NCBI RefSeq assembly: GCF_003790525.1
Contig: NZ_CP033635.1
DNA length: 64,000 nucleotides
DNA from: Escherichia coli
GTDB lineage: Bacteria; Pseudomonadota; Gammaproteobacteria; Enterobacterales; Enterobacteriaceae
Direction: 5' to 3' (one strand)
The notes below the pieces were generated by a model that was not told the DNA's origin, did not search any database, and worked only from the letters and a program-made list of their open reading frames with translations. Every line of letters begins with the position of its first letter. The stretch's first letter is position 1. Shown here piece by piece: positions 55,599 through 63,538 of this stretch. The position numbers and the translations under genes were made by a program.

Positions 55599-56546
55599 TC
55601 AGGCCAGACGGTTGCCCGGAACAAACCATTCCCGACGAGAATTCAGGAGGTCTTGTGCGCTCATCGCTTTCTTACCCGCAGGTTGCAACGAGAGCAGATT
55701 CAGGATGCCATCACCGGTCGCGACCTGAATGCCTTGTTTGCTGGCTTCAAGGATTGTTCCTGGCGCAGACTTTGTCACCGTATCAATGACCGACGCTTTC
55801 CAGACCTTAACAGGCTGGCCTTCAATTTCCAGCCAGCTCATTGGCCATGGATTGAAAGCGCGAATGCAGCGTTCAAGCTGTGCTGCCGAAAGTGACCAGT
55901 CAATACGCGCTTCTTCTTTACTCAACTTCTCTGCGTAAGTGACAAGAGTTTCGTCCTGAACTTCTGGTTTCGCCGTGCCGTCTGCCAATTGTTTCAATGT
56001 GGTGATAAGCCCTTGTGGGCCAAGCTCTGCCAGCTTGTCGTACAGCGTACCACTGGTATCTTCTGCAGTAATCGGGCTGGAGAGCTTATAGAGCATGTCA
56101 CCGGTGTCTAAACCAACATCCATTTGCATAATGGTCACACCAGTTTCTGCATCACCCGCCCATAGTGAGCGTTGGATTGGTGCAGCACCGCGCCAGCGTG
56201 GCAGCAGTGAACCATGAACGTTGATACAGCCAAGACGCGGCATCTCCAGCACGGCTTTAGGCAGAATTAAGCCATAGGCGACGACAACCATAACATCAGC
56301 CTGTAGATCGGCGACCAGTTGCTGGTTTTCTTGTGGACGCAGGGAAACCGGTTGAAAAACGGGCAGACCTTTTTCCTCAGCCAGAACTTTAACCGGGCTG
56401 GGCATCAGTTTTTTACCGCGTCCTGCCGGTCGGTCTGGCTGGGTGAACACGCCAACGACGTTATGACCAGAAGACAACAGCGCGTCGAGATGACGCGCTG
56501 CAAAGTCAGGTGTACCCGCAAAAATAATACGTAGTGATTCTGACAC
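55599..56546 (-). CDS. fmt: Methionyl-tRNA formyltransferase
   Basis: 315-aa [23 protein letters not shown]... Confidence 0.97.
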
Positions 56547-56560
56547 GTTAGTTCTTATCC

Positions 56561-57070
56561 TTAAGCCCGGGCTTTCAGACGATCCAGTTTTTCAACTTTC
56601 TGACGAATACGTTGTTGTTTCAGCGGTGACAGATAATCCATAAACAGTTTGCCGACCAGGTGATCCATCTCATGCTGAATACAGATGGCTAACAGACCCT
56701 CTGCTTCCAGTTCAAATGGTTTACCGTCGCGGTCCAGGGCGCGAATTTTAACTTTCTCTGCGCGCGGCACTAAAGCACGTTGTTCAGGGATCGACAGGCA
56801 TCCTTCTTCAATGCCTGTTTCGCCGCTTTTTTCTAAAAGCTCCGGATTGATTAACACCAGCCGTTCGTCACGGTTTTCCGAAACATCAATAACAATGATA
56901 CGTTGATGGATATCGACCTGGGTTGCCGCCAGGCCAATACCTTCTTCTGCGTACATCGTCTCGAACATATCATCGACGATACGCTGAATTTCTGCATTCA
57001 CTTCTTCTACCGGTTTAGCAACTTTGCGAAGCCGCTCGTCCGGAATATGTAACACTTGCAAAACTGACAT
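56561..57070 (-). CDS. def: Peptide deformylase
   Basis: 169-aa ORF with [13 protein letters not shown] and HEMDHL motifs. Confidence 0.98.
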
Positions 57071-57199
57071 AAATCTCCAGAGATGTGTTCAGGAGTTAGA
57101 AAGATTATTTCTTCTATTCTAGACAAATCCCCCTCTGATTGACAGCATCACTGACCAATCGCAAAGATTGCTAAGGCTGCTTATGGCAGGGAGATAAGG

Positions 57200-58324
57200 A
57201 TGGTCGATACAGAAATTTGGCTGCGTTTAATGAGCATCAGCAGCTTGTACGGCGATGATATGGTCCGTATAGCTCACTGGCTGGCAAAACAGTCGCATAT
57301 TGATGCGGTTGTATTGCAGCAAACTGGGCTTACATTGCGGCAGGCACAACGCTTTCTTTCATTTCCGCGAAAGAGTATCGAAAGCTCACTTTCTTGGTTG
57401 GAGCAACCCAACCATCATTTAATTCCTGCGGACAGCGAATTTTATCCTCCTCAACTTCTTGCGACGACAGATTACCCCGGCGCACTGTTTGTTGAAGGAG
57501 AACTGCACGCGCTGCATTCATTTCAGCTTGCCGTAGTGGGGAGTCGGGCGCATTCATGGTATGGCGAACGCTGGGGACGATTATTTTGCGAAACTCTGGC
57601 GACGCGTGGAGTGACAATTACGAGTGGACTGGCGCGTGGAATCGATGGTGTGGCGCATAAAGCGGCCTTACAGGTAAATGGCGTCAGCATTGCTGTATTA
57701 GGGAATGGACTTAATACCATTCATCCGCGTCGCCATGCCCGACTGGCTACCAGTTTGCTTGAACATGGTGGGGCTCTTGTCTCGGAATTTCCCCTCGATG
57801 TTCCTCCCCTTGCTTACAATTTCCCACGAAGAAATCGCATTATCAGTGGTCTAAGTAAAGGTGTACTGGTGGTGGAAGCGGCTTTGCGCAGTGGTTCGCT
57901 GGTGACAGCACGTTGTGCGCTTGAGCAGGGGCGTGAAGTTTTTGCCTTGCCGGGTCCATTAGGGAATCCGGGAAGCGAAGGGCCTCACTGGTTAATAAAA
58001 CAAGGTGCGATTCTTGTGACGGAACCGGAAGAAATTCTGGAAAACTTGCAATTTGGATTGCACTGGTTGCCAGACGCCCCTGAAAATTCATTTTATTCAC
58101 CAGATCAGGAAGACGTGGCATTGCCATTTCCTGAGCTCCTGGCTAACGTAGGAGATGAGGTAACACCTGTTGACGTCGTCGCTGAACGTGCCGGCCAACC
58201 TGTGCCAGAGGTAGTAACTCAACTACTCGAACTGGAGTTAGCAGGATGGATCGCAGCTGTACCCGGCGGCTATGTCCGATTGAGGAGGGCATGCCATGTT
58301 CGACGTACTAATGTATTTGTTTGA
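57200..58324 (+). CDS. dprA: DNA-processing protein DprA (Smf)
   Basis: 374-aa ORF divergent from def. Confidence 0.9.
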
Positions 58325-58769
58325 AACCTATATTCACACAGAAGCTGAGTTGCGTGTGGATCAAGACAAACTTGAACAGGATCTTACCGACGCAGGATTT
58401 GATCGAGAAGATATCTACAATGCCCTGCTTTGGCTGGAAAAGCTTGCGGATTATCAGGAAGGACTGGCAGAACCGATGCAACTGGCCTCTGATCCACTCT
58501 CCATGCGTATTTATACCCCTGAAGAGTGTGAAAGGCTGGATGCCAGCTGTCGTGGTTTTCTGCTTTTCCTTGAGCAAATTCAGGTGCTTAACCTTGAAAC
58601 CCGTGAAATGGTGATAGAGCGAGTGCTCGCGCTGGATACCGCAGAGTTCGACCTGGAAGACCTGAAATGGGTAATCCTGATGGTGTTGTTCAATATTCCG
58701 GGCTGCGAAAATGCGTACCAGCAAATGGAAGAATTACTCTTTGAAGTGAATGAAGGTATGCTGCATTAA
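58296..58769 (+). CDS. smg: Smg protein (DUF494)
   Basis: 157-aa ORF; start overlaps the dprA 3' end by 29 nt. Confidence 0.9.
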
Positions 58770-58797
58770 TCATTTCTTTAATTCAGCATAAGTTGTT

Positions 58798-59340
58798 ATG
58801 GCGAAATCAGCACTGTTCACGGTGCGTAATAATGAGTCCTGCCCAAAGTGCGGGGCTGAACTGGTTATTCGATCCGGGAAACACGGTCCGTTTCTTGGAT
58901 GCTCACAGTATCCGGCGTGTGACTACGTCCGTCCTCTGAAATCTTCAGCGGATGGACATATTGTCAAAGTTCTGGAGGGGCAGGTTTGCCCTGCATGTGG
59001 CGCACATCTGGTATTACGCCAGGGACGCTTTGGTATGTTTATTGGTTGCAGTAACTACCCTGAATGCGAACATACCGAACTTATCGATAAACCGGACGAA
59101 ACAGCAATTACATGCCCCCAATGCCGGACGGGCCATCTGGTCCAGCGCCGCACCCGTTATGGCAAAACGTTTCACTCCTGTGATCGCTACCCGGAGTGTC
59201 AATTTGCCATTAACTTCAAACCCATAGCTGGAGAATGCCCTGAGTGTCATTATCCGCTACTCATCGAAAAGAAAACCGCGCAGGGTGTAAAACACTTTTG
59301 TGCCAGTAAACAATGTGGAAAGCCGGTTTCGGCGGAATAA
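58798..59340 (+). CDS. yrdD: YrdD, zinc-ribbon protein related to the topoisomerase I C-terminal domain
   Basis: 180-aa ORF with repeated CPxCG/CxxYPxC zinc-ribbon modules. Confidence 0.88.
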
Positions 59341-59344
59341 TAAC

Positions 59345-59917
59345 GTGAATAATAACCTGCAAGGAGACGCTATCGCAGCTGCGATAGATGTCCTCAATGA
59401 AGAACGTGTCATCGCCTATCCAACGGAAGCCGTTTTCGGTGTCGGGTGCGATCCTGATAGCGAAACAGCAGTGATGCGACTGTTGGAGTTAAAACAGCGT
59501 CCGGTTGATAAGGGGCTGATTCTAATCGCCGCAAATTACGAGCAGCTTAAACCCTATATTGATGACACCATGCTGACTGACGCGCAGCGTGAAACTATAT
59601 TTTCTCGCTGGCCAGGTCCTGTCACCTTTGTTTTTCCCGCGCCTGCGACAACACCGCGCTGGTTGACGGGCCGCTTTGATTCGCTTGCTGTACGAGTCAC
59701 CGACCATCCGTTGGTGGTTGCTTTGTGCCAGGCTTATGGTAAACCGCTGGTTTCTACCAGTGCCAACTTGAGTGGATTGCCGCCTTGTCGAACAGTAGAC
59801 GAAGTTCGCGCACAATTTGGCGCGGCGTTCCCGGTTGTGCCTGGTGAAACGGGGGGGCGTTTAAATCCTTCAGAAATCCGCGATGCCCTGACGGGTGAAC
59901 TGTTTCGACAGGGGTAA
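59345..59917 (+). CDS. tsaC: tRNA threonylcarbamoyladenosine biosynthesis protein TsaC
   Basis: 190 aa from the GTG at 59345 ([33 protein letters not shown]...); the ORF-track start is an extension. Confidence 0.9.
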
Positions 59918-59921
59918 CATA

Positions 59922-60740
59922 ATGGAAACCTATGCTGTTTTTGGTAATCCGATAGCCCACAGCAAATCGCCATTCATTCATCAGCAATTTGCTCAGCAAC
60001 TGAATATTGAACATCCCTATGGGCGCGTGTTGGCACCCATCAATGATTTCATCAACACACTGAACGCTTTCTTTAGTGCTGGTGGTAAAGGTGCGAATGT
60101 GACGGTACCTTTTAAAGAAGAGGCTTTTGCCAGAGCGGATGAGCTTACTGAACGGGCAACGTTGGCTGGTGCTGTTAATACCCTCAAGCGGTTAGAAGAT
60201 GGACGCCTGCTGGGTGACAATACCGATGGTATAGGTTTGTTAAGCGATCTGGAACGTCTGTCTTTTATCCGTCCTGGTTTACGTATTCTGCTCATTGGCG
60301 CTGGTGGAGCATCTCGCGGCGTACTACTGCCACTCCTTTCCCTGGACTGTGCGGTGACAATCACTAATCGGACGGTATCCCGCGCGGAAGAGTTGGCTAA
60401 ATTGTTTGCGCACACTGGCAGTATTCACGCGTTGGGTATGGACGAACTGGAAGGTCATGAGTTCGATCTCATTATTAATGCAACATCCAGTGGCATCAGT
60501 GGTGATATTCCCGCGATCCCGGCATCGCTCATTCATTCAGGCATGTGTTGCTATGACATGTTCTATCAGAAAGGAAAAACACCTTTTCTGGCATGGTGTG
60601 AGCTGCGAGGTTCAAAGCGTAATGCGGATGGATTGGGGATGCTGGTGGCACAGGCGGCTCATGCCTTTCTTCTCTGGCACGGTGTTCTGCCTGACATAGA
60701 ACCAGTTATAAAGCAATTGCAGGAGGAGTTGTCCGCGTGA
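59922..60740 (+). CDS. aroE: Shikimate dehydrogenase
   Basis: 272 aa from the ATG at 59922 ([20 protein letters not shown]...). Confidence 0.95.
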
Positions 60741-60994
60741 ATCAGGCCATCCAGTTTCCGGACAGGGAAGAGTGGAACGAGAGTAAAAAATGCGTTTGTT
60801 TTCCCGCTCTTGTAAATGGTATGCAGCTCACTTGCGCTATTACTGGAGAGAGTCTGGCGAACCGCTTTGCAGGAGATACGCCAGAACAGTGGTTAGCGAG
60901 TTTTCGTCAGCATCGCTGGGACCTGGAAGAAGAAGCGGAAAACTTAATTCAGGAACAAAGTGAAGATGATCAAGGTTGGGTGTGGTTACCCTGA
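60737..60994 (+). CDS. yrdB: YrdB, small protein (DUF1488)
   Basis: 85-aa ORF; start overlaps aroE stop. Confidence 0.85.
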
Positions 60995-61524
60995 TCCATA
61001 TATTCGTCCTTCCATTTCACGTAGTTATTTGCGGAATAGCGTAACCCAGCCTTCTCTTCATCACTTAACGGGCGGATCTGTTTGACGGGGCTACCGAGAT
61101 ACAGATATCCGCTCTCCAGCCGTTTATTTTGTGGGACCAGGCTACCCGCACCAATCATCACATCATCTTCTACTATTGCGCCATCAAGTAAAATTGAGCC
61201 CATCCCAACCAAAACTCGATTGCCAATGGTGCAGCCGTGGAGCATCACCTTGTGACCAACAGTGACATCTTCGCCAATGGTTAATGGGTTGCCAGCTGGG
61301 TTGTACGAGGATTTATGAGTGACATGCAACATACTGCCATCCTGGATATTGGTGCGTGCTCCGATCTGTACATAATGTACATCTCCACGAATCACAACGA
61401 GCGGCCAGATCCCCACATCATCAGCCAGACGAACGTCACCAATCACGACGCTGCTATCGTCGATCATTACGCGCTGACCGATTTGTGGAAAAAGATCGCG
61501 GTATGGGCGTAAAACATCAGACAT
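60970..61524 (-). CDS. yrdA: YrdA, gamma-carbonic-anhydrase-like hexapeptide-repeat protein
   Basis: 184 aa from the ATG at 61524 (MSDVLRPYRDLFPQIGQRVMIDDSSVVIGDV...); the 293-aa ORF-track version runs on through the rrn promoter region. Confidence 0.88.
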   Translation of the reverse strand: MSDVLRPYRDLFPQIGQRVMIDDSSVVIGDVRLADDVGIWPLVVIRGDVHYVQIGARTNIQDGSMLHVTHKSSYNPAGNPLTIGEDVTVGHKVMLHGCTIGNRVLVGMGSILLDGAIVEDDVMIGAGSLVPQNKRLESGYLYLGSPVKQIRPLSDEEKAGLRYSANNYVKWKDEYMDQGNHTQP

Positions 61525-61676
61525 ACTCACCTCAACAATAAATGATTTCCTAATGACTTTGGGTGTATTATTGGCCTTGTGCAAGTCTTTTAGCATGCAA
61601 AAAAGCACCGTTTTGTGTGCGAATGCAGCAAAAAGGGTGAAAAAGCAACAAACAGAAAAAAAGATCAAAAAAGTAC

Positions 61677-61704
61677 TTGTGCAAAAAATTGGGATCCCTA
61701 TAAT
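61677..61704 (+). promoter_or_regulatory. rrnD P1 promoter (-35 TTGTGC, 16-bp spacer, -10 TATAAT)
   Basis: Hexamers with optimal spacing, A-rich UP-element-like sequence upstream, GC-rich discriminator GCGCC. Confidence 0.7.
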
Positions 61705-61784
61705 GCGCCTCCGTTGAGACGACAACGTGAAACACTTCACAAGATGGTCGTAACAACAAAGAGAAAAAATCCTGAAATTCAGGG

Positions 61785-61812
61785 TTGACTCTGAAAGAGG
61801 AAAGCGTAATAT
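61785..61812 (+). promoter_or_regulatory. rrnD P2 promoter (-35 TTGACT, 16-bp spacer, -10 TAATAT)
   Basis: Hexamers about 110 bp downstream of P1, as in E. coli rrn operons. Confidence 0.65.
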
Positions 61813-61852
61813 ACGCCACCTCGCGACAGTGAGCTGAAGGCCGCGTCGCAAC

Positions 61853-61870
61853 TGCTCTTTAACAATTTAT
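61853..61870 (+). promoter_or_regulatory. rrn leader boxA antitermination element
   Basis: TGCTCTTTAACAATTTATCA matches the boxA consensus. Confidence 0.7.
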
Positions 61871-61996
61871 CAGACAATCTGTGTGGGCACTCGAAGATAC
61901 GGATTCTTAACGTCGCAAGACGAAAAATGAATACCAAGTCTCAAGAGTGAACACGTAATTCATTACGAAGTTTAATTCTTTGAGCATCAAACTTTT

Positions 61997-63538
<1,542 letters not shown>

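Follow-up and report, generated by a model that had tools for sequence, protein, structure and literature searches.

The genes dprA, smg and topA are co-transcribed in Neisseria meningitidis, as judged by reverse-transcription polymerase chain reaction (RT-PCR), and dprA is linked to topA in 14 of 24 phyla (Hovland et al. 2017, PMC5817196). Escherichia coli keeps a competence regulon that is inducible through Sxy/CRP-S (PMC1635313, PMC3330819), and once sxy is induced every E. coli competence homologue is switched on and DNA can be taken up (PMC3330819). A tsaC-dprA-smg-yrdD-aroE-yrdB neighbourhood has also been charted already (PMC12506659). Here, we analyze this neighbourhood in 64,000 nucleotides of E. 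coli DNA (contig NZ_CP033635.1 of assembly GCF_003790525.1; the whole stretch is referred to as the window), in which dprA, smg, yrdD, tsaC, aroE and yrdB occupy positions 57200-60994. We favor, with a probability of roughly three in four, a model in which the block is a core-genome cluster whose two ancient modules were compacted into one co-directional array in Enterobacterales, and in which yrdD derives from a topA gene that was linked to smg.

The open reading frame list and the junction sequences place all six genes on the + strand, and the six reading frames agree with those annotated in RefSeq for E. coli SMS-3-5 (NC_010498.1), a sequence that matches the window at 100% identity over 4.7 kb. 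The first-pass annotation had described a six-gene co-directional block divergent from def-fmt, and every reading frame was recovered at the position given there. The identities of the proteins were scored against curated NCBIfam cut-offs and with Pfam:

57200-58324, + strand: dprA (smf), 374 amino acids; NF008007 at 705 bits against a cut-off of 495, covering residues 1-374 of 374
58296-58769, + strand: smg, 157 amino acids, DUF494; NF002897 at 294 bits against a cut-off of 191, PF04361 at 199 bits
58798-59340, + strand: yrdD, 180 amino acids, four C4 zinc ribbons; PF01396 (Zn_ribbon_Top1) at 183 bits in three stretches
59345-59917, + strand: tsaC (yrdC/rimN), 190 amino acids, GTG start; NF007919 at 281 bits against a cut-off of 175
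59922-60740, + strand: aroE, 272 amino acids, shikimate dehydrogenase; NF001310 at 415 bits against a cut-off of 221
60737-60994, + strand: yrdB, 85 amino acids, DUF1488, GTG start; PF07369 at 112 bits against a cut-off of 22

DprA is the proteobacterial long form, in which SAM (PF25317, E 4e-21), Rossmann-like (PF02481, DNA_processg_A, E 6e-70) and winged-helix (PF17782, E 2e-11) domains are all detected, so that its name in the first-pass annotation is secure. The family model assigns TsaC to type 1, the threonylcarbamoyl-AMP synthase for the N6-threonylcarbamoyladenosine (t6A) of tRNA. YrdB had no NCBIfam match, and its identity comes from Pfam DUF1488 only.

The Zn_ribbon_Top1 repeats are the sole family match of YrdD, and a fourth CxxC pair lies beyond the three PF01396 stretches. 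Neither the Toprim domain nor the catalytic Topoisom_bac domain was detected in YrdD with NCBIfam/Pfam, and YrdD therefore cannot be a topoisomerase. Judged by its sequence, it is a stand-alone, four-zinc-ribbon C-terminal domain of topoisomerase I, a domain that binds single-stranded DNA (ssDNA); its earlier description as a topoisomerase-I-like zinc-ribbon protein can be sharpened in this sense. Its annotation as a "DNA topoisomerase family protein" in RefSeq and as a "putative DNA topoisomerase" in K-12 is misleading. Peter et al. 2004 had put the identity of YrdD to TopA C-terminal domains of other species at 30-40%, and PMC4678816, where it cites Cheng et al. 2014, credits that work with zinc-dependent ssDNA binding by YrdD. 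The ratio of non-synonymous to synonymous substitution rates (dN/dS), computed here and below against six relatives, is 0.045-0.073 for yrdD; the gene is thus under purifying selection and is neither a pseudogene nor decaying.

Gene order and alignment connect YrdD to one particular kind of topA. In three independent metagenomic lineages (L084/L085, L090 and L093), dprA-smg is followed by a full-length topA of 762-784 amino acids (773-784 in L084, L085 and L093) that encodes Toprim, Topoisom_bac and Zn_ribbon_Top1 domains. The order in L090 is def and then dprA-smg-topA (762 amino acids)-purE-tsaC, and in metagenomic contig L086 it is def and then LysM-dprA-smg-yrdD (193 amino acids)-purE-tsaC-aroE, which indicates that topA and yrdD share one slot. 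YrdD aligns over its whole length, with no internal gap, to residues 602-765 of the L084 TopA (45% identity, 167 bits, E 1e-52) and to residues 578-752 of the L090 TopA at 43% identity and 166 bits. Moreover, the four CxxC motifs stand at positions 15, 64, 106 and 147 in YrdD and at 605, 654, 696 and 737 in the L084 TopA, with spacings of 49, 42 and 41 in both. The shared slot, the sequence match and the published dprA-topA linkage together make it parsimonious that yrdD is what remained of an ancestral smg-linked topA once the catalytic part was lost.

The block occurs in 5425 of 5426 complete E. coli genomes, and its layout in K-12 is identical, with 0 insertions or deletions over 5926 nucleotides. 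We then compared loci in a scan of one genome per species that was anchored on a Smg alignment and followed by tblastn with the E. coli proteins. The anchor alignment was cut from 61 sequences, which were too diverse, to 13, and the resulting scan covers mostly Enterobacterales; more distant smg contexts were looked up protein by protein, in two cases without a match. The order dprA-smg-yrdD-tsaC-aroE is kept in 65 of 68 Enterobacterales species loci, and essentially all Enterobacterales have rsmB-fmt-def on one side, dprA-smg-yrdD-tsaC-aroE(-yrdB) in the middle and yrdA on the other side. The overlap of 29 nucleotides between dprA and smg is kept in 66 of 67 Enterobacterales loci and the overlap of 4 nucleotides between aroE and yrdB in 50 of 51 loci. 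Conservation on this scale lies far outside chance. Of the block genes yrdB is the least stable: with a cut-off of E 1e-5, tblastn gave no YrdB match in the aroE-yrdA interval of loci from Serratia, Yersinia, Rahnella and Acerihabitans (L054-L056, L059, L060, L062-L066 and L068), and elsewhere in Enterobacterales a homologue is present, as it is in Vibrio and Aeromonas at 33-37% identity.

Loci from Vibrio, Photobacterium, Aeromonas and Alteromonadales have the same order with looser spacing. In the non-enterobacterial gammaproteobacteria (L071-L083 and L086) def and dprA are about 1.2 kb apart; in L086 this position is filled by the gene for a LysM-domain protein, and its Vibrio counterpart is probably VC0047, at the head of the Sxy-regulated VC0047-dprA promoter. 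Outside Enterobacterales, yrdD and tsaC are 0.05-1.9 kb apart in Vibrio, Aeromonas and Alteromonadales, most widely in Vibrionaceae; in L086 a purE-like gene lies between them, and in Vibrio, Aeromonas and Alteromonadales a stretch of about 1 kb separates tsaC from aroE. Because the order elsewhere is the same and the spacing looser, the E. coli array is a compacted form of an older, looser neighbourhood, made up of a tight core, dprA-smg-yrdD, and a separate neighbour, tsaC-aroE-yrdB. The 0.05-1.9 kb between yrdD and tsaC also argues against extending to tsaC, aroE and yrdB the role in ssDNA handling that the first-pass annotation had suggested for dprA, smg and yrdD. At the other end, Enterobacterales lost the roughly 1.2 kb that part def from dprA elsewhere, which brought dprA next to the def promoter.

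Within the E. coli array the junctions are very tight. Besides the overlap of 29 nucleotides between dprA and smg, there are 28 nucleotides between smg and yrdD, 4 between yrdD and tsaC (so that tsaC starts 5 nucleotides past the last base of the yrdD stop codon) and 4 between tsaC and aroE, and the GTG start codon of yrdB overlaps the aroE stop codon (GTGA, an overlap of 4 nucleotides). The overlaps and the tsaC distance given in the first-pass annotation can all be read from the sequence. A ribosome-binding site can be read inside dprA:

58282-58289, + strand: Shine-Dalgarno sequence GAGGAGGG for smg, within the 3' end of dprA

Its location suggests a set-up in which translation of smg is likely to be coupled to that of dprA. 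The gene packing leaves no intergenic room for a promoter or terminator between block genes, and a promoter and terminator scan of positions 56500-62000 predicted none at any block junction, in line with the earlier impression of tightly strung genes. In that scan promoter-like sites were fewer than in shuffled sequences and terminator-like sites lay away from gene ends, which makes it uninformative either way on internal promoters. An Rfam scan matched no family inside the block.

Published expression data bear on how the genes are read. The entries smf_2, smg, yrdD and yrdC are all among the relaxation-repressed genes of Peter et al. 2004, and we computed correlations from the 35 array values in the supplement of that study. 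The mRNA levels of smg and yrdD correlate at r = 0.95, those of dprA and yrdD at 0.79, dprA and smg at 0.78, and tsaC and yrdD at 0.72; control pairs of unrelated genes from the relaxation-repressed list gave r = 0.24-0.83. Hypernegative supercoiling is reported to induce yrdD (PMC8301835), in the same direction as topA, and the array profiles of yrdD and topA are poorly correlated (r = 0.21). The supplements of Kim 2012, in which we sought transcript maps, do not mention the block genes.

The short spacer between def and dprA contains the following features:

57071-57199: divergent intergenic region between def and dprA, 129 bp, identical in K-12
57115-57124, - strand: TATTCTAGAC, at least 90% conserved, containing the predicted -10 element (TAGAAT) of the def-fmt promoter
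57137-57148: GATTGACAGCAT, at least 90% conserved, with a perfect TTGACA on the + strand at 57139-57144
57159-57163, - strand: single TGCGA half-site of CRP-S type, conserved only within Enterobacteriaceae

A footprint over 65 Enterobacterales loci found just two blocks of the spacer conserved at 90% or more, TATTCTAGAC and GATTGACAGCAT. The TTGACA in GATTGACAGCAT overlaps the predicted -35 element of def (CTGTCA) on the - strand and is a candidate -35 element for dprA. A CRP-S site was taken as a 22-bp CRP site with a TGCGA-N6-TCGCA core upstream of the first gene; this pattern, with at most two mismatches, has 33 matches in the window against 42.5 expected. The features of the spacer would fit a weak, activator-dependent dprA promoter, although they are proof of nothing. 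The spacer also occurs on plasmids: about 870 plasmid records (596 from Klebsiella and 257 from E. coli) carry a complete def and the entire def-dprA spacer at 94-99% identity, the copy (window positions 56561-57203) ending at or barely inside the dprA start. Two of these contexts were inspected (L002 and L003), an IncFIB plasmid of K. pneumoniae with the copy near iuc aerobactin genes and an IncF plasmid of enterotoxigenic E. coli with the copy near IS91 and the eltAB toxin genes.

The genes of the block are under very different degrees of constraint. Over the 68 Enterobacterales loci, median identity to the E. coli proteins is 89% for def, 85% for smg, 80% for fmt, 76% for yrdD, 73% for tsaC, 67% for aroE, 62% for yrdB and 59% for dprA, and dN/dS is 0.013-0.054 for smg, 0.02-0.04 for def, 0.04-0.15 for tsaC and 0.10-0.21 for dprA. 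Thus dprA is the fastest-evolving gene of the block, yet it is kept under purifying selection, and smg is the most constrained, about as constrained as peptide deformylase; Smg evolves 5-10 times more slowly than DprA. Three reduced, AT-rich genomes (L046, L067 and L088) act as natural knock-outs; two are those of Candidatus Steffania adelgidicola and of the stink-bug symbiont Pantoea sp. Nvir, and the third is L088, a contig of 28% GC. In all three smg, tsaC and aroE are intact, dprA is a 3' remnant immediately 5' of smg or absent, and yrdD is gone. Since smg is intact where dprA and yrdD have decayed, the function of Smg needs neither DprA nor YrdD, and Smg has a strongly selected function that is independent of both.

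Structure and sequence searches offer few leads to that function. A confident AlphaFold2 model of Smg is all-helical (predicted local distance difference test score 86, predicted template modelling score 0.81), and a Foldseek search of the model against the PDB gave no match. A Pfam search at E 10 returned DUF494 alone, and a profile of Smg compared with PDB sequences hit designed helical hairpins only and no solved homologue. Within the searchable literature we found no paper on the function of DUF494. We considered a RecX-like regulator of RecA, built of three tandem three-helix repeats, and set it aside as an unconfirmed lead: the resemblance spans about 50 residues, hhalign against E. coli RecX gives a probability of 3%, and neither Foldseek nor the PDB profile lends support.

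DprA belongs to a family of RecA-loading, ssDNA-protecting recombination mediators and, as a member, would be expected to act as one. The functional characterization of E. coli DprA/Smf is the work of Smeets 2006, and in the passage of PMC5817196 that cites it E. coli is named as the only species among those examined with no role for DprA in transformation. A 2025 review lists E. coli DprA as a candidate for an unidentified RecA mediator at stalled forks, and a housekeeping ssDNA role for DprA is in this respect still possible. The first-pass annotation had taken the retention of dprA, in a species that is not naturally transformable in the laboratory, as a hint at a role in ssDNA handling. 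The question why dprA is retained has already been answered in print, by the Sxy/CRP-S-inducible regulon and the DNA uptake that follows sxy induction (PMC1635313, PMC3330819).

How these two modules came to be joined and are expressed can be envisioned as follows. The first module, dprA-smg-yrdD, would be the local descendant of a widespread dprA-smg-topA operon in which topA was stripped of the N-terminal two-thirds that carry the catalytic part; the C-terminal domain of that TopA, with four zinc ribbons that bind ssDNA, would live on as YrdD, with topoisomerase I activity supplied by the other topA, the one adjoining cysB. The second module, tsaC-aroE-yrdB, is unrelated housekeeping, serving tRNA t6A formation and the shikimate pathway and encoding a DUF1488 protein. 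Transcription of the array probably yields polycistronic transcripts that overlap one another, with translational coupling likely at the dprA/smg and aroE/yrdB overlaps, and transcription from the def-dprA spacer is probably weak or dependent on an activator (Sxy/CRP). The tsaC gene is essential and so cannot depend on a competence-only promoter. Since dprA by comparison sits in an inducible regulon, at least one promoter, presumably a constitutive one, probably lies within upstream coding sequence. DprA and YrdD may plausibly both act on ssDNA.

Several observations weigh against this model. Only the smg-yrdD correlation is clearly above the range of the control pairs (0.95 against 0.24-0.83). 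Both aroE and yrdB are absent from the supercoiling-sensitive list of Peter et al. 2004, a hint that they may be controlled separately, and the case for co-transcription of the entire array is built on spacing and array correlations. Neither the promoter scan nor the footprint revealed a convincing -10 element for dprA on the + strand after the TTGACA, and a complete CRP-S palindrome (TGCGA-N6-TCGCA with at most two mismatches) was not found in 57071-57199. Finally, the direction of change, from topA to yrdD, is drawn from the published breadth of dprA-topA linkage and not from a rooted tree.

Other explanations of the block account for some of these observations. One would deny that YrdD is a remnant of a topA at this site, making it either a zinc-ribbon protein in its own right or a copy of part of an E. 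coli-type topA that happened to land 3' of smg. E. coli TopA also has Zn_ribbon_Top1 repeats and is the only solved-structure match to YrdD. However, YrdD aligns to it at 27% identity and 44 bits, in a shuffled register that is not colinear, as against 43-45%, 166-167 bits and the same motif spacing for the smg-linked TopA proteins, and essentially the one difference between L090 and L086 is whether topA or yrdD stands between smg and purE. We consider such an origin very improbable. Another explanation, which we think unlikely, is that the adjacency has no present function: the order near def-fmt and an rrn operon would simply be inherited, each functional unit would have its own promoter inside the gene before it, and the spacing would reflect streamlining only. 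It would account for the mixed functions, for the looser array in Vibrio and Aeromonas, for the position of aroE and yrdB outside the supercoiling-responsive set that holds smf_2, smg, yrdD and yrdC, and for an essential tsaC beside a dprA in an inducible regulon. The overlaps of 29 and 4 nucleotides are nevertheless invariant over 50-66 species, smg and yrdD are co-expressed (r = 0.95), and the homologous dprA-smg-topA operon is co-transcribed in Neisseria by RT-PCR.

In a third view, dprA, smg and yrdD, perhaps with the whole block, could form one ssDNA-handling unit in which Smg is the partner of DprA and YrdD. The adjacency of dprA and smg across beta- and gammaproteobacteria, the 29-nucleotide overlap that is invariant in Enterobacterales, the ssDNA-binding nature of YrdD and the smg-yrdD co-expression (r = 0.95) all speak for such a unit. 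We nonetheless regard it as quite unlikely: Smg is intact where dprA and yrdD are lost and is 5-10 times more constrained than DprA, its likeness to RecX covers about 50 residues and goes without hhalign (3%), Foldseek or PDB-profile support, the roles of the TsaC and AroE enzymes are well defined and unrelated, and E. coli DprA is cited as having no transformation role (PMC5817196, in its citation of Smeets 2006). The proposal made on first reading, a role in ssDNA handling, fits DprA and YrdD; it does not carry over to Smg as their dedicated partner, given its slow evolution and its retention without dprA and yrdD. A further idea, which we put forward only as speculation and rate as rather improbable, is that YrdD is a domesticated, free-standing topoisomerase I C-terminal domain, retained in the ancestral dprA-smg-topA slot because it goes on recognizing ssDNA, and perhaps contacting RNA polymerase, as that domain does, with Smg a housekeeping factor whose task would concern DNA topology or the control of RecA and not competence. 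The yrdD mRNA still responds as that of topA is reported to, decreasing when DNA relaxes and increasing when supercoiling becomes hypernegative; if true, the idea would account both for the association of Smg with topA or yrdD throughout beta- and gammaproteobacteria and for the persistence of Smg in reduced genomes. On balance we favor the compaction of two modules set out above.

The flanks of the block are formed by the following genes:

55599-56546, - strand: fmt, divergent from dprA, on the far side of def
56561-57070, - strand: def, divergent from dprA
60970-61524, - strand: yrdA (gamma-carbonic-anhydrase-like), convergent with yrdB, the right-hand bound of the block

The 3' ends of yrdA and yrdB overlap by 25 nucleotides (60970-60994), and no intrinsic terminator was predicted between them for either gene, which implies that transcripts of the array must end within antisense yrdA, presumably by Rho-dependent termination. 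A ribosomal RNA (rrn) operon lies beyond yrdA, on the right side of the block. Many draft-genome contigs (L004-L070) stop about 3-3.5 kb downstream of smg, and these contig ends near yrdA are consistent with an rrn operon that is present there throughout Enterobacterales and breaks assemblies. Directly 5' of the 16S rRNA gene, at 61634-61875, there is a sub-threshold Rfam match to the Yersinia small RNA (sRNA) Ysr197 (87 bits against a gathering score of 167), which probably reflects the conserved rrn promoter and leader region and not an sRNA gene. Between SMS-3-5 and K-12 (L094), nucleotide difference is 4.9% in smg, 7.4% in yrdB and 1.2-2.5% in dprA, yrdD and def, and the spacer is identical. 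We rejected the notion that the value for smg is special, as it is part of a patchy divergence along the region (raised at 58400-58700 and 60800-60900) that looks like ordinary recombination mosaicism.

The cluster itself is ordinary, being annotated, part of the core genome and already published, and finding it is of little weight as such: the neighbourhood, ssDNA binding by YrdD and Sxy control are all in print. What we did not find stated elsewhere is the equivalence of yrdD, in position and sequence, to the C-terminal domain of the smg-linked topA, and the strong, DprA-independent constraint on Smg. Seeing YrdD as the C-terminal domain that outlived a displaced topA suggests in concrete terms what it may do, and makes it a case of gene fission in which the N-terminal part was lost. 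Smg (DUF494), strongly constrained and kept in reduced, symbiont-type genomes, is a reasonable target for functional work.

The locus can be set beside systems already described. The study of the de Crécy-Lagard group (PMC12506659, Fig. 7) used the same set of neighbours to tell tsaC from yciO, without reading yrdD as a remnant of topA and without considering selection on smg or dprA. In the Sxy/TfoX-CRP-S regulon (Cameron & Redfield 2006, PMC1635313; Sinha & Redfield 2012, PMC3330819) dprA is a conserved member, which accounts for its being kept in E. coli without laboratory transformability. In Vibrio a CRP-S promoter lies upstream of VC0047, the gene immediately 5' of dprA and co-transcribed with it, whereas in the E. 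coli window no full CRP-S palindrome was found 5' of dprA. The C-terminal domain of E. coli TopA (structure 4RUL, PMC4678816) consists of C4 zinc-ribbon ssDNA-binding repeats, like YrdD, and the same paper already names YrdD as a four-ribbon relative with zinc-dependent ssDNA binding; YrdD differs in being free-standing and in its lower identity to that domain (27%) than to the four-ribbon domain of the smg-linked TopA (43-45%). A further close system is the dprA-smg-topA operon of N. meningitidis, which resembles the E. coli locus in order, strand, tight spacing, a third gene with Zn_ribbon_Top1 and co-expression of smg with the gene downstream. In E. coli, by contrast, the third gene encodes only the C-terminal 180 amino acids, without the Toprim/catalytic domain, the full topA lies elsewhere, by cysB, and tsaC-aroE-yrdB is appended directly.

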